From Candidatus Limnocylindrales bacterium (GTDB lineage: Bacteria > Moduliflexota > Moduliflexia > Moduliflexales > JAUQPW01): a stretch of 64,000 nt of DNA. The DNA lies in assembly GCA_035559535.1 (NCBI GenBank), contig DATMBG010000017.1:1-64000 (forward strand), in the 5' to 3' direction. Positions 23,500-38,711 of this stretch are shown in pieces. Numbering within the stretch: position 1 is the first letter of the stretch; each line of letters opens with the position of its first letter. Under the pieces are notes generated by a model. The model was given only the letters and a program-made list of their open reading frames with translations, searched no databases and was not told where the DNA came from. A program made the translations under genes and the position numbers.

Positions 23500-23719
23500 A
23501 ACTTGATCTCCTGTTGCATTCTCTGTCTTTAATCCAGGAATGCCTGTGGGGTTTATCCTGTGATTTTAATCAGAAGGTTATAACTACACGATGAAACTAA
23601 AATCAGGTTCTGTCAATAGTTATTCTGGGTTCCGGAAGAGCCCCCTGAGTCCTCAAACTTGAAGGATCCTCTGCTTTTCCATTGACAAATTTTAAACTCC
23701 TATGCTACAGTCATGTCCC

Positions 23720-24583
23720 ATGACACCGTTGACTCTTAAGGAATTTGAGAAATTTCGCGATCTCATCTATCAGCATACCTCGCTTTTCTTCACGGAAAAG
23801 AAAAAGACCTTTTTAGAGAGTAAATTACGGCAACGCATGGAGATGCTGGACCTTTCTTCTTATGAAGCTTATTATCAGCTCCTAAAAGGGGAGAAGGCTT
23901 CTTCTAAAGAACTTTCGGCTTTGATAGAAACCCTGGTCATTCCCGAAACTTCCTTTTTCCGAATCCGGGGGCATTTTTTGGAACTCGAACGAAGTATATT
24001 TCCCAAGCTACTCACCCAAAAGTCCCAAGAAAGCCAGTCCCTGCCTCTACCTCAAAAACCCCAAATTCGGATATGGTCGGTTGCCTGCTCTACAGGGGAA
24101 GAACCCTATTCTATCGCCATGTCCCTTTTAGAAGTCCTTGGAGATCCTGCCGCGTGGAATATTGAGATCCTTGCTACAGATATCAGTAACTCGGCTTTAG
24201 CTAAAGCCCAAAGGGGTATTTATTCTAAGGATAAAGTAAAAAAGGTAGAATCCAGATATGTTGACAAATATTTTAAAGATCTGGGAGGGAAAGAGTATCA
24301 GATAGCCGCTGAAGTCCGGCGATGGATAAGATTTCAATACCTCAATCTCAGGGATCTGGATAAATTTCATTCTGCAAGTTATGATCTCATTTTCTGCAGG
24401 AATGTCTTGATTTACTTTGATCGAAAAGCCCAGGACCTTCTTATGGAGAGAGTGACGAATCTACTTCTTCCGGGAGGTTACCTGTTTTTAGGCGATGCCG
24501 AACCCCTCCATACCTTTCCCCAAATTGCAAGAAAGTTTGAATTTATCGAAATAGAAGATGCTATGATTTACAGAAAAAAGTAG
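23720..24583 (+). CDS. cheR: CheR-type methyltransferase (copy 1)
   Basis: ETSFFR, IWSVACSTGEEPYS, ATDIS, IFCRNVLIYF; start 23720 preferred over 23702. Confidence 0.93.
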   Translation: MTPLTLKEFEKFRDLIYQHTSLFFTEKKKTFLESKLRQRMEMLDLSSYEAYYQLLKGEKASSKELSALIETLVIPETSFFRIRGHFLELERSIFPKLLTQKSQESQSLPLPQKPQIRIWSVACSTGEEPYSIAMSLLEVLGDPAAWNIEILATDISNSALAKAQRGIYSKDKVKKVESRYVDKYFKDLGGKEYQIAAEVRRWIRFQYLNLRDLDKFHSASYDLIFCRNVLIYFDRKAQDLLMERVTNLLLPGGYLFLGDAEPLHTFPQIARKFEFIEIEDAMIYRKK

Positions 24584-24592
24584 GAGAGCCCT

Positions 24593-26926
24593 ATGTATGA
24601 AGATGATCTCGAACTCTTAGATTCCCCGGATGAGGATATTCGATGTGCCGCCCTGGTTCGGTTGGCCGATAGAGATGTTAACTGGATTCTCGAACCTCTT
24701 ATGTTGGCCTTAGCAGATCCCAGTTGGCGGGTTCGGAAAGCTGCTATCAAGGCTTTAGAGAAAGCGGATAAACATCGACTTATTCCCCTTCTCCTGAAGG
24801 CTCTTCGCGAGGATCATGCCGGGGTACGGAATGCTGCCATGGAGTGTTTGATAAATATCGGAAAAGAAGCGGTAAGCCCTTTATGCCAGCTTTTATCAGA
24901 TCCTGATAAGGATTTAAGGATCTTTGCCGTAAACACCTTGGGTGCCATAAGAGATCCCACGGCTTATCCTTGCCTGATCAAAGCTTTAACAGATCCTGAA
25001 AAAAATGTCTGCCACGCTGCCATCGATGCTCTGGCTAAAGTAAAAGATCCACGGGCCGTAGACCCTCTGATCCAGATTGTTCAAAGAGAGGATATTTGGC
25101 TAAAGCTTCCGGCCATAGCCACTCTGGGAGAACTCGGAGATCCACGGGCAATTCCGTATCTACTTCCCCTGGCCCAAGACTTTCTCTTCAAACAAACCGT
25201 TATAGAAGCCCTGGGGGCCATTGGAGATGAAGCCGGTATACCTCTTATGATCCCAAACCTGGAAGATCCTGACCCGGATATTCAGAAAGCCGCTCTGCTG
25301 GCTTTAAAAAAGATCCTATTCAAAACGGATCGGATCAATCGAATGATGGATAAGATCTCCCCACTTCGGCAGCAATTTAATCAGGCTTTTACCTCAGGAG
25401 CTTTAAACTACCTCATGAGGGCTATAGGGGATGAAAATCCTGAAATAGCCGAAGCTGCTGTTTTCTTGCTGGGATGGTCAGAGGCACCTGAAGCTACAGA
25501 GACTCTGCTGGAACTTCTAAACCATGAAAGGTTATCCGATTCGGCCATGGAGGCTTTACTTAATCAAGGGACTCGAATCCTCTCCGGTCTGGAAGAACGG
25601 TATGAATTTAACGAGTATGACCAGAAACTTCGTATCCTGGAGTGCCTGAATCGATTGAGCTGGAACCTCCTGTCGGATCTGGAAGAAAAGGAGCCCATCT
25701 CCAGGGACTCCGGGGACAGATTTGGAGAGAATTTTGAGTCCGTTGAAGGAATCGTTTCTGAAGGGTACTCGCAGGGACTAAAAGATGTGTTAAAAGTCCT
25801 CCAGATTTTTATAGATCTGTTTAAAAAAGAGGGGGAAGAAGAACTCCAGGCGGAGATTCTGAGAGGGCTTGCTTCAGAAAGATTTATTAAATTTCTGAAA
25901 CTTCAGACCATCTCCACGCTTCCCCTTTTCCGGGAGCTCCTTGTTTTGATTGAAGAAGCCTTGCAGTCCCAGGATGCGTTTTTACGGGCAGAAGCCATCA
26001 AACTCATGGGGCAGTTAAAAGGAGTTACCGCTTTAAACCTGCTACATCTTGCTACCAAAGACCTGGACGGAAGAGTACGGGCTGCAGCCATTACTCAACT
26101 CGGCTGGCTAGCCCGACGCGATTCCGGCTTACTGGATTCTGTTACCCTGGCTTTATCCGATGAGGATCCAAAAGTTCGTGAGCAGGCCGCTTTGGCCCTG
26201 GGATCTATTCCAGAGCCTAAAGCCTTGGAGGCTCTCCTCCAGGCCATCCAGGATGAAGATTTCCGGGTTAAACGGGCGGTCATTAATACCCTGGGAAAGT
26301 TTAAAAACCTCCGGATAATCGATACCTTAGCCGGTATCCTTCCCTACTGTAAGCGGCGAGAAGATGGGACCCTCCGGGTAGCCATTTGTGAAACGTTGGG
26401 TCGGTTTCTAAATTCGGAAAAAAGTATTACGCTTCTGAGCGAAATGCTTACGGATTACGACTTTGTAGTACGCCGGGCAGCCGTTTACGCCCTGGGGAAT
26501 ACCAAAGACCATCGTGAACGTGTTAAAGGTCTCCTGATCCAGGCTTTGGAGGACCCCCACTGGAGTGTTCAGGAAGCCGCCATAAAATCCCTTGGAAAAT
26601 TGGGGATTAAGGACTGTGAAGATCTCTTCCTCCATCTTCTGAATCATCCAAAGATAGGTCTTCGAAAAGCAGCCATTCAGGCTTTGGGAGAAATAGGTTC
26701 TGAAAAAGCTCTAGAAATGCTCATCTCCCTCCTGATAGATGAGGACCTATGCCAAGAGGCCTATCAGGCTCTTCTTATCTGGGTAGATAAAAATGATCGG
26801 TCCGATGTCCTTACACTTCTTATGGAAGAAAAAGGACGATCCCATCCAAATCCTCTGGTGTACCGTCTCGTAAAGAGTATTTTGAATAAGGGTAACCATG
26901 GAAGATCACAATCAAGAAGCCTTTAA
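24593..26926 (+). CDS. HEAT/PBS-lyase repeat protein
   Basis: Repeated LxDxDxxVRxxAxxALG units in N- and C-terminal blocks. Confidence 0.92.
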   Translation: MYEDDLELLDSPDEDIRCAALVRLADRDVNWILEPLMLALADPSWRVRKAAIKALEKADKHRLIPLLLKALREDHAGVRNAAMECLINIGKEAVSPLCQLLSDPDKDLRIFAVNTLGAIRDPTAYPCLIKALTDPEKNVCHAAIDALAKVKDPRAVDPLIQIVQREDIWLKLPAIATLGELGDPRAIPYLLPLAQDFLFKQTVIEALGAIGDEAGIPLMIPNLEDPDPDIQKAALLALKKILFKTDRINRMMDKISPLRQQFNQAFTSGALNYLMRAIGDENPEIAEAAVFLLGWSEAPEATETLLELLNHERLSDSAMEALLNQGTRILSGLEERYEFNEYDQKLRILECLNRLSWNLLSDLEEKEPISRDSGDRFGENFESVEGIVSEGYSQGLKDVLKVLQIFIDLFKKEGEEELQAEILRGLASERFIKFLKLQTISTLPLFRELLVLIEEALQSQDAFLRAEAIKLMGQLKGVTALNLLHLATKDLDGRVRAAAITQLGWLARRDSGLLDSVTLALSDEDPKVREQAALALGSIPEPKALEALLQAIQDEDFRVKRAVINTLGKFKNLRIIDTLAGILPYCKRREDGTLRVAICETLGRFLNSEKSITLLSEMLTDYDFVVRRAAVYALGNTKDHRERVKGLLIQALEDPHWSVQEAAIKSLGKLGIKDCEDLFLHLLNHPKIGLRKAAIQALGEIGSEKALEMLISLLIDEDLCQEAYQALLIWVDKNDRSDVLTLLMEEKGRSHPNPLVYRLVKSILNKGNHGRSQSRSL

Positions 26927-27728
26927 ACTCATTCGGGAAGTGATTTACCAATATTCCGGGATGTACTTCTCCGATGATTACCAAAAGATCTTGCTTAAAC
27001 GGCTGGAAAAGCGCCTGGATTTTCATAACTTAAGTTCCTTCTATGATTACTACTACTACCTGAAGTACAATAAAGATAGCGATCAGGAACTTAAAATTGT
27101 TATGAATCTTGTAACGATCCGGGAAACCTATTTCTTTCGAGAAGAAGGTCAATTGAAAGCCCTGGTTGAAGAGGTCATTCCGGAGATTTTGAATAAAAAA
27201 TCGGATCCGAGTCCAATCCGAATCTGGTGTGCAGGATGTTCTTCAGGAGAGGAACCCTATTCCATCGCCATACTTATTCTGGAACAGGAACTCCACCAAA
27301 GGGGCTTCAGTCTGGAAATTTTTGCAAATGATATCAGTCAGGAGGCCATTCAAAGGGCAAAAATCGGGGAATATATGAAATCGTCCTTTCGAACCATGCC
27401 GGTCTTTTATAGGGAAAAGTACTTCACCCCCAAGGGAGATAAGTATGTAATAAAAAGCGAAGTAAAATCCCTTCTGAATTTCTCCTGCATGAACTTACTG
27501 GATAGAAATAAATTGACATTTCTCCCCCTTTTTGATGTGATCTTTTGTCGTAACGTAATCATATACTTCAATAAAAAATCTAAACAGGAGGTTATCACGC
27601 AATTTCATAAATCTTTAAAAAAAGACGGATATTTATTCTTGGGGCATTCGGAATCCCTGATGGACTTTACGGATCTTTTCAAATTAAAGCATTTTAAAAA
27701 TGCCCTGGGATATGAAAAGGTTGGTTAA
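26898..27728 (+). CDS. cheR: CheR-type methyltransferase (copy 2)
   Basis: ETYFFRE, IWCAGCSSGEEPYS, IFCRNVIIYF, LGHSES. Confidence 0.95.
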   Translation: MEDHNQEAFKLIREVIYQYSGMYFSDDYQKILLKRLEKRLDFHNLSSFYDYYYYLKYNKDSDQELKIVMNLVTIRETYFFREEGQLKALVEEVIPEILNKKSDPSPIRIWCAGCSSGEEPYSIAILILEQELHQRGFSLEIFANDISQEAIQRAKIGEYMKSSFRTMPVFYREKYFTPKGDKYVIKSEVKSLLNFSCMNLLDRNKLTFLPLFDVIFCRNVIIYFNKKSKQEVITQFHKSLKKDGYLFLGHSESLMDFTDLFKLKHFKNALGYEKVG

Positions 27729-27779
27729 GAAAACGGTAACCTTTCTAAGGTTTTAAATCCTTGAAAGATGGGAGTTGGA

Positions 27780-28835
27780 ATGAATTCCAAAGTAAAAGTT
27801 CTTGTTGTAGATGACTCGGCGTTTGCCCGAAGAACCCTCACCAAAATCCTGGAACAGGATCCCAGGATTCAGGTGATTGGAACAGCCTGGGATGGGCGAG
27901 AAGCCCTGGAAAAAATCCAAAGATTAAAACCCGATGTGGTCACTTTGGATATTGTCATGCCGAATATGACCGGGCTTCAAGCCCTGGATGTTATCATTAA
28001 GGAAATGCCGACTCCCATCATTGTGGTTAGTTCCTTAAATCCAGAGGTTATCAAAGAAACTTTAATGGCCCTGGAGCGTGGGGCCGTAGACTTTATTTTG
28101 AAACCCACCGAATTTGCCTCCGAAAAACTCTTCCAGATAAAAACAGAGTTGATCAATAAAGTCATTACCGCGGCTTCCCTTAAAGGGAAGGCCTTACAGG
28201 ACCGGGTGATACAACCCACCATATCCCAACAAGAGGTCAAAGTCGTTACGCGAAAGGAGAAGCCCCTCCGGATTGATTGCGTATGTATCGGTGTTTCAAC
28301 GGGGGGACCGACCGCCCTTCATCAAATTATCCCTAAATTGCCGGCAGATTTTCCGGCCAGCATCCTCATCGTTCAACATATGCCGCCGGGTTTTACGGAG
28401 TCCCTGGCAGACCGCTTAAATCGCAACAGCCAGATTGAGGTCAAAGAAGCCAAAGAAGGAGACCTGGTCAAACCGGGAAGAGCCCTTGTCGCCCCGGGGG
28501 GTTTTCACCTGAGTCTGGAAAGAAAGAAACATGCAGTTACGACCCGAATTCATCGTGAACCTTCCGATATCATTCATATTCCTTCCATTGACATTACCTT
28601 TAGTTCCGTAGCAGATATTTATGGCGAGCGCAGCTTAGGTGTTATCTTAACAGGTATGGGGAGAGACGGAATCCAGGGCCTTCAAAAAATCAAACAGAGC
28701 GGAGGGCTTTCCATTGCAGAAGATGAAAGTACTTGTGTGGTCTTTGGAATGCCTCAAGTAGCCATTAATACAGGAATCGTAGATAAGGTCGTCCCTCTCT
28801 ATGATATTGCAGGAGTAATCATGGAAATGGTTTAA
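27780..28835 (+). CDS. cheB: Chemotaxis methylesterase CheB (REC plus esterase)
   Basis: VVDDS, TLDIVMP; Ser/His/Asp in GVSTGGP, VQHMP, LTGMGRDG. Confidence 0.96.
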   Translation: MNSKVKVLVVDDSAFARRTLTKILEQDPRIQVIGTAWDGREALEKIQRLKPDVVTLDIVMPNMTGLQALDVIIKEMPTPIIVVSSLNPEVIKETLMALERGAVDFILKPTEFASEKLFQIKTELINKVITAASLKGKALQDRVIQPTISQQEVKVVTRKEKPLRIDCVCIGVSTGGPTALHQIIPKLPADFPASILIVQHMPPGFTESLADRLNRNSQIEVKEAKEGDLVKPGRALVAPGGFHLSLERKKHAVTTRIHREPSDIIHIPSIDITFSSVADIYGERSLGVILTGMGRDGIQGLQKIKQSGGLSIAEDESTCVVFGMPQVAINTGIVDKVVPLYDIAGVIMEMV

Positions 28836-29075: not shown

Positions 29076-31085
29076 ATGGCTAAATTCAGAATTGGAGAAA
29101 TTCTTTTAGAAAAAGGTTTAATTACCGAGGATCAACTTCGACAGGCCCTCAAAATCCAGGAAATGACAGGCAAGAAACTGGGGTCGATCCTCGTCGAGTT
29201 GAAATACCTCCGTACTCGCAACCTCGGTCAGATACTTGCCAACATTTATAAAGTACCTTCCATCGATTTGGGGAATTATTCTATTAAAGTAGAGATGGCC
29301 CGTATCCTCCCAAAAGAATACTGTTATCAAAAGCATATCGTTCCATTACAAATCAAAGATAAAAATCTGATTGTAGCCATGACCAAACCTAATGATTACT
29401 CGACTATTCGGGAGGTAGAGTTTATTACAAATTTGAGGGTTACTGCGGTCGTTGCGCCAGAAACTTCCATCGATAGAGCTCTCGAGGATTTATTCAACCG
29501 GGCCCAAAAAGAAGAAGAGAAGGCTACCCTTGAGCAAACTTCCCATGAATACCGGGGGAAGCGGCTGGATAGAGATAGTTATTTGATGTTACGATCTCCT
29601 GAGGGTCTTTCCCGGGAAGATTCTTCCCTGCCGGACCAGGATCTTCCCTTTACCTATGCTCTAAACCCGTCGGAATCCCAGGTCGAGAGCGCTCCCGGAA
29701 TACCTTCTGAAAAGGCTTCTAAAGCTGGGATAACCTCGGGGGAGTCTCCAGAAGTTTTAACTTTTCAGGTGGATCAACCTGCACCTGAAATCTCTCCGGT
29801 TATTCCCGACGAGGAGTTCAAAACCTGTAGTTCGGATCAAACAGTTTCAGATAAAACCGACAAACCCTTGATAGTTGGAAAAGATGAGAAGGATCAGATT
29901 TTAAACCGGGAGCTTTCTAAAGCTATCGAAAAGGGGGCAGAGTATGTTCACCTGGAATTAAATGAACGAGGTTTTGAAATTAAAGTCCGAATCTCCGGTA
30001 AATTGGAGATTTTATCCACCTTATCCAGAGATTTATTCAGGCCCTTAATCCGGGAACTTAAAGAACTCTCCTCGGTAGATCCCATGACATGGGGATGCCC
30101 TCAAAAAGGTTTTTTTAAGTTTCCTTACCAGCAAAGTGAGATTCCCATTACTTCTCACTTCTTTCCCTATAGGGATTTAATCCGGGTGGTCCTTCATATC
30201 CAGAGACGTTTTGATTCGAGTTGGAGCCTGGATCGCCTGGGATTCTCTCCCAGCATGTATAAGTCTTTCCAGGAAGTGCTCTCTTATCCCCGAGGGATTA
30301 TTCTCTTCTCAGGCCCTCCGGGCAACGGAAAAACAACAACCATCTATACTGCCTTGAAGGAGCTTATCTCGGAAAAAAGGGCTATTGTAACCTACGAGAG
30401 TCCCATACGATACCAGTTACAAGGGGTCTTTCAGACCGAGCCGGAAAATAAATACGAAGCAAACTATATAACAGGCCTCAGTGATATCCTGGACCAAAAT
30501 CCAGATGTTTTATACGTAGATAGAGTGGTCGATCCTCAATCGGCTCAATTACTCTTTCATGAGAATTCTTCTTATGCCAAGATTTTTATTCGATCCACAC
30601 TGGATAGCTCCCTGGCAGCCCTCTCTTATTTTCTGGAATTGCTGAGAAATTCTCACGTTTTACTTACCTCTTTGAATGCCGTCCTTACCCAACGGTTGGT
30701 GAACCGCTTATGCGATCACTGCAAAAGTGCCTATACCCCTTCTCCACGAACCCAAGAACGCATCAAACAGCTTTTAGGGATTACGGATTTCGTCCTTTAT
30801 AAAAGTGATGGCTGTGAGAAGTGTCAGCATACGGGTTTTAGAGGACGAACGGCTATTTTCGAGTTGCTGGTCATGGATGATAAAGTCAGGTCCAGATTGA
30901 TCGCCGAATCCAAGGAATCCCTATCTTCCTTGCTTTCCGAGGTAACCCTCAAAAAAATCTTCTATTCACCTGAGACCGTTACTCTTATGAATGATGGATT
31001 GGGAAAGGCCTTACAAGGCGTGACAACCATTGCTGAGGTGGCTCGAGTAATAGGACTCGGTAACTATACCCGAATGCTAGGCTAG
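29076..31085 (+). CDS. MshEN-domain GspE/PilB-family ATPase, degenerate
   Basis: RIGEILLEKGLITEDQLRQALKIQ; Walker A GPPGNGKTTT; CDHC/CEKC zinc site; GRTAIFE, GVTTIAEV. Confidence 0.88.
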   Translation: MAKFRIGEILLEKGLITEDQLRQALKIQEMTGKKLGSILVELKYLRTRNLGQILANIYKVPSIDLGNYSIKVEMARILPKEYCYQKHIVPLQIKDKNLIVAMTKPNDYSTIREVEFITNLRVTAVVAPETSIDRALEDLFNRAQKEEEKATLEQTSHEYRGKRLDRDSYLMLRSPEGLSREDSSLPDQDLPFTYALNPSESQVESAPGIPSEKASKAGITSGESPEVLTFQVDQPAPEISPVIPDEEFKTCSSDQTVSDKTDKPLIVGKDEKDQILNRELSKAIEKGAEYVHLELNERGFEIKVRISGKLEILSTLSRDLFRPLIRELKELSSVDPMTWGCPQKGFFKFPYQQSEIPITSHFFPYRDLIRVVLHIQRRFDSSWSLDRLGFSPSMYKSFQEVLSYPRGIILFSGPPGNGKTTTIYTALKELISEKRAIVTYESPIRYQLQGVFQTEPENKYEANYITGLSDILDQNPDVLYVDRVVDPQSAQLLFHENSSYAKIFIRSTLDSSLAALSYFLELLRNSHVLLTSLNAVLTQRLVNRLCDHCKSAYTPSPRTQERIKQLLGITDFVLYKSDGCEKCQHTGFRGRTAIFELLVMDDKVRSRLIAESKESLSSLLSEVTLKKIFYSPETVTLMNDGLGKALQGVTTIAEVARVIGLGNYTRMLG

Positions 31086-32885: not shown

Positions 32886-35800
32886 ATGTATCGAAAGATA
32901 GAGCTTGCTTTTTTAAGCCTGGAGCATCGGATTATTGAGCTTTTCCGATTAAACCGGATGTCCCATAATTTGATCTGGCTGGCCTTGGGACTTATTTTGT
33001 TTGTCTGGTTTATAAGTAAATGGCTCTTCTCGCTGCATCCGCAACCGGATACAGAGTTTGTACTGATTCGAGATCCTTCCATAGCCAGTGGCCATGCAGA
33101 AGTGTATTATGAAGATGGCTCCTTTTATCTGAAACCCCTCCATGGAAAAGTATTCTTCAATAGCCAGGAGGTGAACCGGGCTCTTCTCTTAAAGGAAGGT
33201 GATCAGTTTATCCTGGGTCATACCATTCTTCAGCTCAGGGATACCCACGGTTGGTTACCTCAGCTTAAAGTTGTGGGGTATTATCTAAATGAGCGTCTGC
33301 TCAATTCAAAAAAAATATCGGTCGGGCGGTCCCCTCGTCCGGAGGAGGAAAATAAATGGAAGCCTAATGATATTGTGGTTTCGGATACCTTCTTTGAACC
33401 GGTTCAGTTCTGGATTTTTCCCATAAAAGGAACCTCCGAAGCAACAGCTCCCTTAAGTTTTTTCATTGAAAACCGGGGTAAAAAAAGTATCGAGATTGAT
33501 CATGGGGATACCCAGGGTTGGAGTTCTGTTCGCAATAAGCAGCCCCTTAAAATGGGAGATAAAATCAGGGTCGGTGAAACCATCCTTCAGTTTGTTCCCG
33601 GTAGAACTGGAAGGGGAGTCGAATTGAAGATCCTTCGAGGTCTCACCCCAAGTTTTCGAGTTTATCTTGATAAACGCACGATTTTAAGCGGTTCAGATAC
33701 CATCCCGGGAGGATATATTCCCGATGCCCTGGTGGATGAAGAATTCCTGGAGAATGTTCGAAGGTGTATTGAAGCCCGGCTTATTTATCTCGTACACGAG
33801 ACCCAGAAACCTACCTCGGACCGAAGCGAAGGGGCAGAAAGAAAAAGATGGACGCAAGAAGGTGAAGGAGAAGAATCCTTTCTGAGTTTTCTACGGGTTA
33901 AAGGTTTTACAAAAGAAGGAAAACTCATGGCACCGGAGTTTGATGCGCTTACCAAGCGAGAAAAGCAACTCCTAGAAGGGGTATTTCGATTTTCCCCTAA
34001 AGAGGGCTCCCGACTCCGATGGAAAAGACCTTTTAATCGAAATCAAGAAGATCCCCACGTGTTTGACGGCACCGAACTGGAGAACTTTATCATAAAAGAT
34101 GATGAGCTAAAAGGAATTTATAATTTTGCAGCCCGACTATCCAATCCCCATAAACTTCAGAAGGAACTTCTGGTCCGAAGGGGTGTAATATATGATCGGG
34201 ATCAACAGACGCTCCCCCGATTGATTTTATCCAATCCCCAGGTATTGGAAAAGGTTCAACTGGTCAGTCAAAGTTCAGCCGGGGCCAATGCGGTCCCAAT
34301 CAAAGGACCTGTCCAGTTCTTATTGATAGATTATGACGATCCGAATACCGTACTTGAAATCAATCTAAATAAACCCCTGGAGAGTAAGATATATGTGGGT
34401 AGTGGCTATTTATTTATCCCTGGGGTAGGAAGGGGTTTAAAACCCGACCTTACGACAGAGATCCCCAAAACTCCCCCGACCTCGAAGGAGCGTATCATTG
34501 TCAGACGAATAGCAAACCAGGTTAAATTGGCATTGGGTTGTTTATTCAGCCGGCCGTCTGGACAAGCTGGGACCCGGCATATGCCCCCTCCACTCCCGTC
34601 GGATGGGGTAACAGATGGAGAATTTCCCGGTTCAAGTCTGTTACCCAATTATACCTGTACAGAAGAGAAGGAATTGGCGGACGGGGAAACCTTTGAGATA
34701 GGAGACTTAAGTTTTACTTATCAAAAGGGAGGTTCAGGACTTCTAGCCGGAAATAAAGAGTCTGATCCCGATAGACCAAAGGCCCAAGACGGGGGACAGA
34801 CCCGATATTATCCTTTAGGGGAAAAGCTGGTCCATGTGATCGGCTATGATTATCCCCGAAGTAATTTTAAAGCAAATCTGGAGGATATTTTTGATCAGGT
34901 ATTACTCGGGGAAGAGCGTAAGAAACCCTGGTATATGTTTACTTCCAGGTCAGACAGGCGGGTAGGGAACAACCTCATTCTGACTTTAGATGATGATCTT
35001 CAGCAGATTATTTATGAAGCTCTGAAGAAAAAACTGGATGAATTAAATCGGCGGGTAGAGGAGGGAAAGCAGAAACCCGATGAGCCGGAAATGAAGGATG
35101 AAGGTCCTGATGTAGAGAGCGAGGAATATTCCAAAGAAGCTGTCTTTCGGGGTGCTGCGGTTGCCATCAATTCAGACGGAGAGATTCTGGCTTCTGTGAG
35201 CCTTCCAACTTATAATCCTCACAATATCCATAGTATTCTGGCTGCCTTAAAAGAATCTTCTTTAGATAACTGGAATAGCTCTTTTATCAATAGAGCCTTT
35301 CACAAAACCTATCCGCCGGGATCAACCTTCAAACTCATCATGTCCTCCCTGGCCCTTGAGAACAAAGATCGGTTCCTGTGGGAAAATAAAAATTACTTGA
35401 TTAGAGATGGGGCTGGAGGATTTTACTGTACCGGAGTTTTGAGTAGTTTTGAAGGGGTCCGTATCGGTAAACCCATACCGGACTTTCGAGGTGGAAAGCA
35501 TGGAGGACCCTTGCATTTGGAAGATGCTCTGGCCCAATCTTGTAATAATGCCTTTGCTTTCCTGGCTCTAAAGGCTGGAAGTGACCTTATTACCCAGTAT
35601 GCCGAGCGATACGGGTTCAATCAACAGGACGATCTTTTACCTTTATCGGTATTTGAAGGGGATGTAAAAGCCATCGGACGTATCAACCGTGAAGAAGGGG
35701 ATACTCTATTTGCTCTTAAAAGCCAGGTACCCCTCCCGGAGGAAGATCTCCAGATGTCAAAGGTGGCCCGAATGGGGATTGGACAGTGGGAGATCCAGGC

Positions 35801-36344
35801 GACCCCCCTGGAGATGGCTTTGGTAGCTATGACCATTGGAAACTCCGGCTTGCGCCCTTATCCCCACCTGATCAAAGGAATCCAGGACGGGGAAACCGGG
35901 CAGATAAAATATTTCCACTACCCGGATAAAAAACGGGTTCTCTCTAGGGAAGCGGCTGAAGCCTTGAAGCCTATGATGCAAAAAGTCGTTCAGGAGGGGA
36001 CGGCCATTCGGATCTCCCTGAGTAAAATTCCCTACTACTCTTTAAAACACCATGTATTTGGGAAAACCGGTACTGCCGAAGTCCAGGGGGAAAACGGAAA
36101 AAAATCCAACATCGCCTGGTTTTTGAGTGTAGCCCCCATAGAAAACCCTAAGATAGCCATTGCCCTTGTCATCGAAAAAGGGGCCATCATCTCCCGAGAA
36201 CCTGTGATGGTTGCCCGAGATATTTGGGAAAAAACCGTGTTGCTCTACCACGATCAATTTCTCCCGGATAACGTTGAAACTCTTAAACCTTCCGAGCATC
36301 CAACGCTTCAGAAGCCTAAAGAACCGAAGAGTTTGAGAAGATAA
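32886..36344 (+). CDS. Class B penicillin-binding transpeptidase with FHA-like domains
   Basis: N-terminal TM; FHA-like segments; TRYYPLG, LTLDDDLQ; SxxK (PGSTFK), SxN (QSCN), KTG (GKTGTAE). Confidence 0.88.
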   Translation: MYRKIELAFLSLEHRIIELFRLNRMSHNLIWLALGLILFVWFISKWLFSLHPQPDTEFVLIRDPSIASGHAEVYYEDGSFYLKPLHGKVFFNSQEVNRALLLKEGDQFILGHTILQLRDTHGWLPQLKVVGYYLNERLLNSKKISVGRSPRPEEENKWKPNDIVVSDTFFEPVQFWIFPIKGTSEATAPLSFFIENRGKKSIEIDHGDTQGWSSVRNKQPLKMGDKIRVGETILQFVPGRTGRGVELKILRGLTPSFRVYLDKRTILSGSDTIPGGYIPDALVDEEFLENVRRCIEARLIYLVHETQKPTSDRSEGAERKRWTQEGEGEESFLSFLRVKGFTKEGKLMAPEFDALTKREKQLLEGVFRFSPKEGSRLRWKRPFNRNQEDPHVFDGTELENFIIKDDELKGIYNFAARLSNPHKLQKELLVRRGVIYDRDQQTLPRLILSNPQVLEKVQLVSQSSAGANAVPIKGPVQFLLIDYDDPNTVLEINLNKPLESKIYVGSGYLFIPGVGRGLKPDLTTEIPKTPPTSKERIIVRRIANQVKLALGCLFSRPSGQAGTRHMPPPLPSDGVTDGEFPGSSLLPNYTCTEEKELADGETFEIGDLSFTYQKGGSGLLAGNKESDPDRPKAQDGGQTRYYPLGEKLVHVIGYDYPRSNFKANLEDIFDQVLLGEERKKPWYMFTSRSDRRVGNNLILTLDDDLQQIIYEALKKKLDELNRRVEEGKQKPDEPEMKDEGPDVESEEYSKEAVFRGAAVAINSDGEILASVSLPTYNPHNIHSILAALKESSLDNWNSSFINRAFHKTYPPGSTFKLIMSSLALENKDRFLWENKNYLIRDGAGGFYCTGVLSSFEGVRIGKPIPDFRGGKHGGPLHLEDALAQSCNNAFAFLALKAGSDLITQYAERYGFNQQDDLLPLSVFEGDVKAIGRINREEGDTLFALKSQVPLPEEDLQMSKVARMGIGQWEIQATPLEMALVAMTIGNSGLRPYPHLIKGIQDGETGQIKYFHYPDKKRVLSREAAEALKPMMQKVVQEGTAIRISLSKIPYYSLKHHVFGKTGTAEVQGENGKKSNIAWFLSVAPIENPKIAIALVIEKGAIISREPVMVARDIWEKTVLLYHDQFLPDNVETLKPSEHPTLQKPKEPKSLRR

Positions 36345-36402: not shown

Positions 36403-37872
36403 ATGACTATCGAGGCTTTTATTACTGCAAAATCCAAAGGCCGCTATCAGGACATTACCGAAATGCACTATGAAGAGGGCGGCTTTGGCAGGCTTTATAA
36501 AGCTAAAGATTCTCATCGAAATGGAGCGGAAGTTTGTATTAAAGTCATTAAACCCAATTTGCCCCGGGATCTTCAATTAAAACTCTGGCAGGATGAAGTT
36601 CGTGCGCTCAGCAAGTATGCCAGACGCTCGAATATAGCCAACCTGGTCGACAAACCTTACGAATTTACAGACCAGGATCCTTACCTGTTTTTTGTTATGG
36701 AATATGTGCACGGAGACCGGTTGGGTTCCAGTAAGTATAAGATCGAGCTAAATTTGGAACAAGACCTTGCCGTGCTTGCACTCTTCCAGCTCTGTTCCGC
36801 AGTTTATAGTATTCACCAGCGGGGGGAGTACCATCAAGATATTTTTCCAGATAACATTAAAATGGACGGAGATAATCTGATTCTGTTGGATATGGGAGGT
36901 ATGCGGGAAGCTGCAAGGCGGTCCGGCACGGTTATCTTTGGAGGGGAAATCTATTCGGCTCCAGAAGTATCCCCTACCCGACTTAGAATCAAAAAATTCC
37001 GAACTCTGCGAAAAAGTAAAATGGGGAGTTTCGAAACAGCCGATATTTTTTCTATTGGAGCTATTTTTTATGAAATGATCACGGGGAAAACTTTTTTTGA
37101 CAACCCCGATGAGTCCAATCAATTGAAAGAATTTATTTATGATTACTACGCTGAGTTGCCCGAGATTACTCCGCCGGCCGGTGTAGATATCAAGACCCAT
37201 AAGGCCGAACTCATCAAGCAGCTCATCAAAATGAAACAGGAATACGGAAGTATTATCCGGAAATATGTTCAAAGAATGGAGAACTACAAAAATTTCCTGG
37301 ATAAGCAAGGGTTTTCTCAGACACTGGCCGAGCTTCTTACCAATACCTTATCCATATTCCCACCGGAACGTCCAAAAGCAGAGGAAATTCTTACGGCCCT
37401 TTTCTCCTATTTGATGAAACAGGCAAAAAAACATTTCTCAAAAGGGGATTGGGAGGCGGCTCTCCGGGACTTCAAACATCTCGAACGGCATTTTGATGAA
37501 ATCGCTTTGGAAAGCGAGGATGAAGATCCCCTTTTTAGGGAGCGGATGATCCGACACTTGCAGACTCACCTGGACTTGTATTTGAAGGTCTGTCTGGGGT
37601 CCGGTGCGACGCTCTTTCACTCGGGCTCTTTCACCCTGGCAAGGGATAAATTTCTCAAAGCCGAAACTATCCTGATGCAACAATCCCAGGTTCTTTCGGT
37701 TAAAGCACGAGAAACCTATATTTTGAAGATTCGTAACAACTTAGCCGCCTGTACCTTTATGTCCGGTCAGATTAAAAAGGCTACGGAAGAGTTTGAGCGT
37801 CTTTTAAAGGCGGTAGAAGGGACCAGTCCAATTGTACGAAATAATTTGGCAGTTTGTGCCAGGTATCAATGA
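36403..37872 (+). CDS. Ser/Thr protein kinase with a C-terminal TPR-like region
   Basis: EGGFGRLY, VCIK, HQDIFPDN, LLDMG, YSAPE, ADIFSIGAIFYEMITG. Confidence 0.85.
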   Translation: MTIEAFITAKSKGRYQDITEMHYEEGGFGRLYKAKDSHRNGAEVCIKVIKPNLPRDLQLKLWQDEVRALSKYARRSNIANLVDKPYEFTDQDPYLFFVMEYVHGDRLGSSKYKIELNLEQDLAVLALFQLCSAVYSIHQRGEYHQDIFPDNIKMDGDNLILLDMGGMREAARRSGTVIFGGEIYSAPEVSPTRLRIKKFRTLRKSKMGSFETADIFSIGAIFYEMITGKTFFDNPDESNQLKEFIYDYYAELPEITPPAGVDIKTHKAELIKQLIKMKQEYGSIIRKYVQRMENYKNFLDKQGFSQTLAELLTNTLSIFPPERPKAEEILTALFSYLMKQAKKHFSKGDWEAALRDFKHLERHFDEIALESEDEDPLFRERMIRHLQTHLDLYLKVCLGSGATLFHSGSFTLARDKFLKAETILMQQSQVLSVKARETYILKIRNNLAACTFMSGQIKKATEEFERLLKAVEGTSPIVRNNLAVCARYQ

Positions 37873-37946: not shown

Positions 37947-38711
37947 TTGCTTTCTTTTCAAAGTTACGTGAGTAGTCAGCCGGGACCAAAAAGGGCTTTC
38001 AATGAAGACAGTTATCTGGTAAGTACAGAACTGGGTCTTCCTAAAGATCTTTTGACGCGGTGTGGAATCCTCTACGCTGTGGCCGATGGAATGAGTGGTC
38101 ATGCGGCGGGTCAGGTGGCAAGCAAATTGGCTGTAACCACACTGAAAGAGTATTACACTCAACCCAATTTTAATTTATCCCCTCTAAACAGATTGGAAGC
38201 TCTTTTTCAGAATGCCCACGAGAAAATATTAGCAACTGCCTATCGTAACGCGGCCTATAAGGGAATGGGCACGACCCTTACGGCAGTGGTACTTAAAGAG
38301 GGTTGGCTTTATTACGGACATGTAGGAGATAGTCGACTGTATCTTATTACGGGTGCTACGGGAAGGTTGGAACAGATAACCTATGACCATACGCTGGTCG
38401 CCCGATACCTTCGAGAAGGAAAATTAAGTGCGCAAGAAGCTGAACAAGAAGACAGTAGCATTTTGGAACAGGCCCTGGGATTTACCCGAAACGTGAAAAT
38501 CGATTTGGGCCAACTGGCTATCAAATCCGGAGACTATATTATCCTGGCGACCGATGGTTTAACCAAATCGGTATCGGTATCTAAGATGAAATCGATTGTC
38601 TTAAACTCTCAGGATGCTGAAGATATTTGTAAAAAGCTGGTTAGAAAAGCCACCGAGAATGGGTTAATCGATGATATCACAGTTATTGTCATTGAGGTTG
38701 TGGGAGATTGA
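37947..38711 (+). CDS. PP2C/PrpC-type Ser/Thr phosphatase
   Basis: RAFNEDS, VADGMSGHAAGQVAS, GMGTT, HVGDSRLY, ATDGL, DDIT; TTG start. Confidence 0.92.
   Translation: MLSFQSYVSSQPGPKRAFNEDSYLVSTELGLPKDLLTRCGILYAVADGMSGHAAGQVASKLAVTTLKEYYTQPNFNLSPLNRLEALFQNAHEKILATAYRNAAYKGMGTTLTAVVLKEGWLYYGHVGDSRLYLITGATGRLEQITYDHTLVARYLREGKLSAQEAEQEDSSILEQALGFTRNVKIDLGQLAIKSGDYIILATDGLTKSVSVSKMKSIVLNSQDAEDICKKLVRKATENGLIDDITVIVIEVVGD

Follow-up and report, generated by a model that had tools for sequence, protein, structure and literature searches.

A third class B penicillin-binding protein of the KSB3/Moduliflexus phylum with two forkhead-associated folds in a probably periplasmic extension

The window analyzed here is a stretch of 64,000 nucleotides, positions 1 to 64,000 of contig DATMBG010000017.1 (assembly GCA_035559535.1), from a genome labelled Candidatus Limnocylindrales bacterium and placed by GTDB in Moduliflexota. 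Its plus strand, on which the PBP modules and the kinase and PP2C genes described below also lie, carries at positions 32886..36344 a gene for a 1152-residue class B penicillin-binding protein (PBP) whose N-terminal extension bears forkhead-associated (FHA) folds. FHA domains are normally intracellular phosphothreonine (pThr) readers. We consider it likely that the protein is a third, phylum-specific class B PBP, nearest to the PbpA type, in which two degenerate FHA folds, together with a novel domain, form a periplasmic arm between anchor and pedestal, and which probably works together with an orphan SEDS protein.

According to the proposed scheme, the enzyme would act as a third, accessory class B PBP whose transpeptidase most resembles the PbpA type and which is encoded by a core gene of the KSB3/Moduliflexus phylum. 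An extension of ~380 residues, made of two tandem FHA folds and a novel alpha/beta domain, would separate the membrane anchor from the pedestal, and the entire extension would be exported with the transpeptidase into the periplasm. The FHA folds would no longer read pThr and would most likely be an arm that binds a protein or the wall, or else a spacer; the old ligand-binding loop of the second fold, apparently rebuilt with Glu, Asn, and Trp, would still be its most conserved part. The most likely partner of the enzyme would be the third, orphan SEDS polymerase, held via the N-terminal helix and the transmembrane (TM) helix as in RodA-PBP2.

The open reading frame listing and the translation gave a single uninterrupted frame of 1152 amino acids at 32886..36344, as the first-pass annotation of this DNA had reported. 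The transpeptidase domain PF00905 was recognized by Pfam with 146.9 bits against a cutoff of 22.1 (E 9.4e-43) and occupies residues ~750–1120 (35133..36245). The catalytic motifs, which had been described as intact, proved to be invariant in all 17 sequences of the family alignment, in which the window protein is designated P0001 and the full-length identity among members is 28–61%: S813-x-x-K816 (35322–35333), S885-x-N887 (35538–35546), and K1060-T1061-G1062 (36063–36071). No match to the GT51 (Transgly) domain was found by Pfam at E<=1 in the window protein, whereas the two class A PBPs of the same genome do match it. The protein is a class B PBP with intact catalytic motifs, and its sequence predicts transpeptidase activity. 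The best solved relatives of the transpeptidase were 4mnr and M. tuberculosis PBPA, with E values of 9.7e-32 and 2.4e-23 for this group. Among the NCBIfam models, the best match was pbp2_mrdA (TIGR03423), with 190.3 bits against a cutoff of 455; identity as an MrdA equivalog was rejected on the basis of this score and of the absence of SEDS genes from the contig of the window (C17). For the comparisons described below, the protein was split into the modules M1 (residues 50–124), M2 (130–243), MID (244–432), and M3 (440–640), and the transpeptidase.

The gene is a core, single-copy gene of the phylum and not an accident of assembly. Each of the nine genomes of the KSB3/Moduliflexus phylum yielded exactly one match to MID, located inside one long frame (partial, of 445 residues, in one genome); the genomes of Candidatus Moduliflexus, Candidatus Vecturithrix, and KSB3 all contain it, and the family member P0011 corresponds to GAK51047.1 of Ca. 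Moduliflexus flocculans. A word-indexed search with residues 1–680 returned only nine proteins of 33–86% identity, one of them named candidate division KSB3. An exhaustive HMMER pass with the same region against 1.84 billion representatives gave 13 matches at E<=0.001, among which only P0002, P0011, P0012, and some fragments belonged to the family; the remaining matches were ordinary cytoplasmic multi-FHA proteins that aligned to M1 alone. Apart from short fragments, this pass revealed the extension neither as a stand-alone protein nor in split form. No relative of P0012 was found in the species genome collection. The KSB3 organisms have been described as Gram-negative, filamentous, and gliding, and a word search of the main text of the KSB3 genome paper gave no mention of FHA, peptidoglycan, or the cell wall (PMC4312070).

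This distribution bears on the explanation that the gene is an artefact, either an FHA gene and a PBP gene joined into a chimera by assembly or gene calling, or a decaying pseudo-enzyme. Such an explanation is exceedingly improbable. It could draw on the fact that all members come from metagenome-assembled genomes and on the low confidence of the full-length structural model; however, the same architecture was found in one uninterrupted frame in all nine genomes (counting the partial one), the similarity extends along the whole length of the protein with invariant catalytic motifs, and the genome of one member consists of a single contig of 7.29 Mb, on which the gene is located.

Three segments of the protein had been described as FHA-like by the first-pass annotation, and the first two of them are genuine FHA homologues. 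M1 (33033..33257) is an FHA-fold domain without the N-terminal Gly-Arg strands. Pfam placed PF00498 at residues 60–111 (37.2 bits, E 3.9e-9; cutoff 20.7 bits), and hhalign, which was run with family sub-alignments as queries against an alignment of 19 canonical FHA domains including that of the FhaA-like protein of the same genome, aligned it with a probability of 98.9% (E 3e-17, 62 columns). M2 (33273..33614), an FHA-fold domain that has kept G147-R148, contains a 9-residue conserved insert (PEExNxW), and carries Glu171 at the Ser position, was aligned with a probability of 96.7% (E 3.6e-10, 75 columns). M1 and M2 matched each other with 92.8%. The controls, MID and the transpeptidase, reached only 0.6% (E 0.094, 48 columns) and 1.0% (E 0.057, 23 columns) against the same FHA reference. 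With Pfam, single M2 members gave weak FHA matches in six of seven cases (best E 0.0014), the M2 of the window protein scoring 15.5 bits on its own, which is below the cutoff; a match above the cutoff does fall on M2 in the relatives P0011 and P0012.

The structural models were consistent with this assignment. In the AF2 model of residues 49–660 (11 alignment rows), M1 and M2 were predicted with confidence, with pLDDT values of 75–93 in blocks of 10 residues and a single dip to 58; M1 was all-beta, with values of 75–92. The values of MID were mixed (33–91), and those of M3 were low (26–81). The FHA folding of M2 was checked by AF2 together with fold searches, in which residues 127–244 matched solved FHA domains. 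Foldseek against the PDB gave eight matches at E<=0.001, namely seven TIFA rows (five entries) and the FHA domain of ArnA, and the next matches were the N-terminal tandem FHA of EssC, CT664, EmbR, OdhI, and FhaA. In the VIA search, which is independent of Foldseek, all 50 rows were FHA proteins, by title or, for a few complexes, by the presumed identity of the matched chain. The root-mean-square deviation was ~2 A in the top rows (1.6–2.6 for the best ten and as much as 6.2 lower in the list). The alignments spanned 79–106 residues and lay, in almost every row, on model residues ~79–196, which correspond to residues 127–244 of the protein (M2). With Z values of 7.5–10.9, the model of M2 showed the eleven-stranded beta-sandwich that characterizes FHA domains.

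The canonical set of pThr-binding residues of FHA domains consists of Gly-Arg, Ser-x-x-His, and Asn-Gly/Asn. In the hhalign alignments neither M1 nor M2 has the full set, in agreement with the earlier impression that these residues are only partly retained. M1 begins downstream of the Gly-Arg strands and has its Asn-Gly turn deleted; at the Ser-x-x-His position it carries Ala67 and His70 in the window protein and Ser together with Ala or Val in KSB3, so that Ser and His are never both kept. M2 retains G147-R148, the Arg being lost in P0012, and the 9-residue insert follows this pair. The Ser position of M2 is occupied by Glu171 and the His position by Gln174 in the window protein and by His in KSB3, and Asn-Gly was not aligned. 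Six of the seven invariant positions of M2 (G147, S149, E153, N156, N161, and D167) lie within residues 147–167. This clustering indicates that the former ligand face is the most constrained part of M2, and, as far as can be read from the sequence, its chemistry has shifted from phosphate-binding to acidic and aromatic. We infer that pThr binding has been lost in both FHA folds.

MID (33615..34181) is a family-specific alpha/beta domain and the best conserved part of the extension, with 41–48% identity to KSB3 and 22 invariant positions. It had no Pfam match, no PDB profile match, and no usable ESM Atlas match; the profiles of M2, M3, and MID run against PDB sequences gave nothing below E 0.03. 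The first pedestal motif is RRGVIYDRD (residues 431–439, 34176..34202), in which R432, G433, and D437 are invariant and whose equivalent in P0012 lies inside a match to PF21922 (PBP_dimer_2). The remaining part of the pedestal starts at RYYPLG (residues 640–750, 34803..35135), with R640, Y642, P643, L644, and G645 invariant. An acidic insert of low complexity, rich in Glu, Asp, Lys, and Pro, separates the pedestal from the transpeptidase at residues ~724–748 (~35055–35129); it is clade-specific and absent in KSB3.

The third FHA-like segment, M3 (34203..34805), did not live up to its description. It lies between RGxIYDRD and RYYPLG, where other class B PBPs have part of the pedestal head, and was predicted as an all-beta insert with disordered loops. 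The Pfam FHA model matched none of seven members, and hhalign gave 19% (E 1e-3) over 27 columns, covering only the last two strands, which form the terminal L-x-D-G-x-x-F-x-x-G motif (LADGETFEIG in the window protein); with the short KSB3 forms alone the value fell to 8%. M3 comprises ~105 residues in KSB3 and ~200 in the window protein, the added length consisting of low-confidence loops, and P0012, a distant relative, lacks it; the pedestal of P0012 gave a match to the PBPA dimerization domain PF21922. M3 is thus best described as an all-beta insert, and its identity as an FHA domain is not supported. No Pfam match to a PBP dimerization domain (PF03717/PF21922) was found in the window protein, because M3 splits this region, and the flanking RGxIYDRD and RYYPLG motifs are conserved; in the ESM Atlas, the M3 region of KSB3 with its flanks gave a sub-threshold lead to PBP_dimer (0.89). 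Two cysteines, C551 and C590 (in the region of 34536 and 34653), lie in the clade-specific part of M3 and are kept in P0001–P0004; they could be linked by a disulfide bond, as might be expected of a periplasmic protein.

These data also bear on what the extension does. One explanation is that it is periplasmic and purely structural, a rigid stalk without a ligand that lifts the transpeptidase, for example to a distant wall layer or to the septum in filaments. The ~380 extra residues between anchor and pedestal and the degenerate pThr site are compatible with a stalk, as is the presence among the fold matches of EssC and YscD, degenerate FHA scaffolds that lack pThr binding. However, M2 has its invariant positions concentrated in what was the ligand-binding loop (residues 147–167) and not in the core, the conservation of MID exceeds what a passive spacer needs, and a long rigid stalk would hinder the pedestal, which must still reach the SEDS loop. 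We regard a pure stalk as unlikely. A protein or wall ligand bound on the rebuilt M2 loop is favored here over a passive spacer. A bolder and rather unlikely version of the ligand-binding idea would be that this is the first FHA fold working outside the cytoplasm, in the periplasm of KSB3 filaments, with the M2 loop (invariant Glu, Asn, and Trp) binding a wall component or a partner protein and thereby positioning or switching a phylum-specific third SEDS-PBP synthase. If so, the wall ligand could be a glycan strand, a stem peptide, or the head group of lipid II, and the synthase might perhaps serve filament septa.

The position of the FHA folds relative to the membrane had been singled out at the outset as a topological puzzle, in that FHA modules and a transpeptidase appeared to share one side. 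The puzzle stands: two FHA folds follow the only TM helix and precede an intact transpeptidase, and to our knowledge FHA domains are otherwise cytoplasmic or nuclear. The chain opens with a tail (residues 1–27, 32886..32966) that contains a conserved basic helix (EHxxIxxFRxxRMSxN), is common to the window and KSB3 clades, and is predicted to be cytoplasmic; its conservation supports the upstream start codon. The sole TM helix follows at residues 28–48 (32967..33029). A 19-residue Kyte-Doolittle scan of the window protein gave a peak at residues ~25–48 with a maximum of 2.11 and nothing else above 1.4, in line with the single helix proposed earlier, and each of 12 family proteins contained exactly one TM-grade segment. 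A second TM helix between the FHA segments and the transpeptidase, which would have separated the two, was sought by hydropathy in all 17 sequences and found in none; the runner-up window reached at most 1.47 and was, in 15 of the 17, a strand downstream of KTG that is buried in the transpeptidase core. In most of the 17 sequences the net charge of the 15 residues preceding the helix is positive, and the 15 residues after it are neutral or acidic.

The invariance of the catalytic motifs requires that the transpeptidase have access to the wall, and an active extracytoplasmic transpeptidase combined with a single membrane crossing would place M1, M2, and MID outside as well. Periplasmic FHA folds would thus be the simplest resolution of the puzzle, as suggested by hydropathy, flank charge, and the model of the complex with a SEDS protein described below.

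The genome to which the window belongs encodes three SEDS proteins and as many class B PBPs. Apart from the third SEDS protein and the PBP of the window, these are arranged as two pairs: the gene for FtsI (634 amino acids) lies ~3 kb from the FtsW gene on the same contig, and that for PBP2 (634 amino acids) adjoins RodA. All SEDS genes are confined to contigs C55 and C22. The third SEDS protein, of 503 amino acids (L025:10303-11814, contig C22), has ~170 extra N-terminal residues with further hydrophobic helices. Its gene is followed by that of a DUF4388 protein, and an FhaA-like protein (FhaA_N and FHA, 280 amino acids) is encoded ~5 kb away at L025:4893-5735. The third SEDS protein was detected in all nine phylum genomes, including that of the window, with 53–58% identity in the seven distant ones and 96% in the one of the same genus. 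Three SEDS matches were found in eight of the nine genomes and one in the remaining genome, which is incomplete.

The third SEDS protein (8-row alignment) was modelled with residues 1–130 of the PBP (9 rows) in three runs, accompanied by three controls. The runs scored 0.78, 0.69, and 0.79, and the best control scored 0.00; the mark applied to this score is reached by 116 of 157 solved complexes and by 2 of 215 mismatched pairs. The runs shared at least 69% of their contacts, with a pLDDT of at least 69 for the partner. The modelled interface involves PBP residues 6–51 and SEDS residues 249–253, 292–302, 359–367, and 394–462, and the closest pairs run from SEDS 406 with PBP 40–44 through SEDS 417 with PBP 29–33. 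The PBP helix is antiparallel to the SEDS helix that begins after the invariant H386-D387-F-I-F. We take D387 to be the periplasmic catalytic Asp of SEDS proteins; if it is periplasmic, the PBP helix in the model would enter from the cytoplasm and exit towards the periplasm, with its N-terminus inward. The model shows an anchor that resembles the canonical anchor of class B PBPs on SEDS proteins, and the docking of residues 6–51 on the C-terminal SEDS helices is presumably similar to that in the solved SEDS-PBP pairs.

The main alternative to a periplasmic arm comes from the neighbouring genes. On the 3' side of the PBP gene, after a gap of 58 bp, the window encodes in order a Ser/Thr kinase homologue and a PP2C, both soluble, then a TPR protein of the membrane and a PEGA protein. 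The kinase homologue (36403..37872) contains TPR and matches Pfam Pkinase with E 4.9e-27, and the PP2C phosphatase (37947..38711) matches PP2C_2 with E 1.4e-15; no TM helix is present in either of them. The same gene order was found in locus L001, whose PBP is 93% identical. The FHA modules might accordingly be cytoplasmic pThr readers tied to the neighbouring kinase and phosphatase, in an FhaB/FipA-like anchor fused to a PbpA, with a cryptic amphipathic or re-entrant second crossing between M2/MID and the pedestal. This arrangement would agree with the usual location of FHA domains, with the retention of G147-R148 in M2, and with the closeness of the transpeptidase to actinobacterial PBPA, whose operon includes FHA proteins, a PP2C, and kinases.

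However, after the first helix no segment exceeded 1.47 on the Kyte-Doolittle scale in any of the 17 sequences, and an inward N-terminus with one helix, the orientation also given by the complex model, puts the FHA modules outside. Conservation is lacking at the Ser, His, and Asn-Gly positions, and Gly-Arg is missing from M1. Furthermore, neither a kinase nor a PP2C lies beside the gene in any of the five more distant KSB3 loci, which indicates that the link to the kinase is a genus-level arrangement and not a family trait. On the same grounds, the kinase and the PP2C were rejected as definers of the function of the PBP family. Cytoplasmic FHA modules therefore appear quite improbable, and we retain the periplasmic arm as the preferred reading.

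Several points nevertheless weigh against a periplasmic arm with a SEDS partner. In the genus of the window, the gene lies 58 bp upstream of a kinase and a PP2C, the classic company of cytoplasmic FHA domains, and M2 has kept its Gly-Arg pair. The periplasmic placement is derived from hydropathy, charge bias, and the model; the charge bias is modest and is missing in some rows (L006 and two N-truncated gene calls). The AF2 model of the full-length protein (9 rows) was poor, with a mean pLDDT of 41.8 and values below 50 even for the transpeptidase, and the fold-search lists were filled by M2, so that MID and M3 were scarcely covered. Since solved complexes of SEDS proteins with class B PBPs exist, the pass of the modelled complex may reflect memory, and the model does not discriminate among the three SEDS proteins. 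Finally, no precedent for an extracytoplasmic forkhead-associated domain was found in the literature searched.

Most of the components have counterparts in known systems. The PbpA-type PBPs, to which the best solved relatives of the transpeptidase belong (M. tuberculosis PBPA, 3un7/3lo7; 4mnr) and whose PBPA domain PF21922 is carried by P0012, are also similar in gene context: the PBPA operon includes FHA proteins, a PP2C, and kinases, and in the genus of the window the PBP gene has a kinase and a PP2C downstream. In PBPA, however, the helix leads straight into a short pedestal and the chain contains no FHA, whereas here the two FHA folds and MID add ~380 residues behind the helix, the pedestal is interrupted by a further beta module, and there is no adjacent SEDS gene. 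PBP2/MrdA with RodA, the pair of the elongasome (T. thermophilus 6pl5), likewise includes a class B PBP with a single anchor helix. Unlike MrdA, the window protein is not an equivalog of that family, and its genome already has adjacent PBP2-RodA and FtsI-FtsW pairs.

An extra folded domain between anchor and pedestal is also present in S. aureus PBP2a and enterococcal PBP5, which were recovered only as matches to the transpeptidase. Their extension has an NTF2-like fold, however, and is neither an FHA domain nor related in sequence to residues 49–432. Single or tandem FHA folds serve as structural modules adjoining a membrane helix in EssC (N-terminal tandem FHA, 5fwh/1wv3), YscD (4a0e), and CT664 (3gqs), which were among the best fold matches (Z 7.8–10.9). 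These folds are without canonical pThr binding and lie on the cytoplasmic side of their machines, whereas the FHA folds of the window protein follow an anchor with a predicted inward N-terminus and precede a periplasmic enzyme. Each of the three elements, a class B PBP, a SEDS pair, and a degenerate FHA scaffold, has thus been described before, but full-text literature searches did not find an FHA fold on the periplasmic side within a PBP. No fusion of FHA and PBP was found there either, and the matches for 'periplasmic FHA' concerned the Bordetella filamentous haemagglutinin.

If an FHA fold does lie outside the membrane, where there is neither kinase nor ATP, this would mean that the fold can be reused for another ligand, and it would caution against annotating each FHA match as phospho-signalling. 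For cell-wall biology, the system would represent a third SEDS-PBP pair in which the arm that joins anchor and pedestal is unusually long. The pair would be conserved throughout a phylum whose filamentous, gliding members are a cause of bulking in wastewater reactors.

Further observations concern the surroundings of the gene and the other wall-synthesis genes. The kinase homologue has unusual motifs, HQDIFPDN and DMGG, in place of the usual HRDxKxxN and DFG, and judging from these it may be atypical or inactive. The start of the PP2C is uncertain: the protein has 254 amino acids from a TTG codon in the window and 285 amino acids in L001, where the start overlaps the end of the kinase gene. 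In the KSB3 loci, a DUF155 gene lies divergently upstream in four of five, and a gene of ~350 codons lies downstream in three of five, directly after the PBP gene (L002:11083-12120, L003:10995-12059, and L006:10996-12060). The protein encoded by the latter had no Pfam match in two of the loci and a weak match to phosphodiester glycosidase (NAGPA) in one; it could be a conserved partner in that KSB3 clade. Of the class A PBPs of the genome, one with 768 amino acids (L025:17567-19873, contig C22) showed a match to the S1 RNA-binding domain (E 1.2e-6) between its glycosyltransferase and transpeptidase, which is probably an OB-fold linker. Upstream of the PBP gene, the window contains a chemotaxis-type cluster (23702–28835), in which two CheR methyltransferases flank a 777-residue HEAT-repeat protein and are followed by CheB, as well as a PilB/T2SSE ATPase with an MshEN domain (29076–31085).

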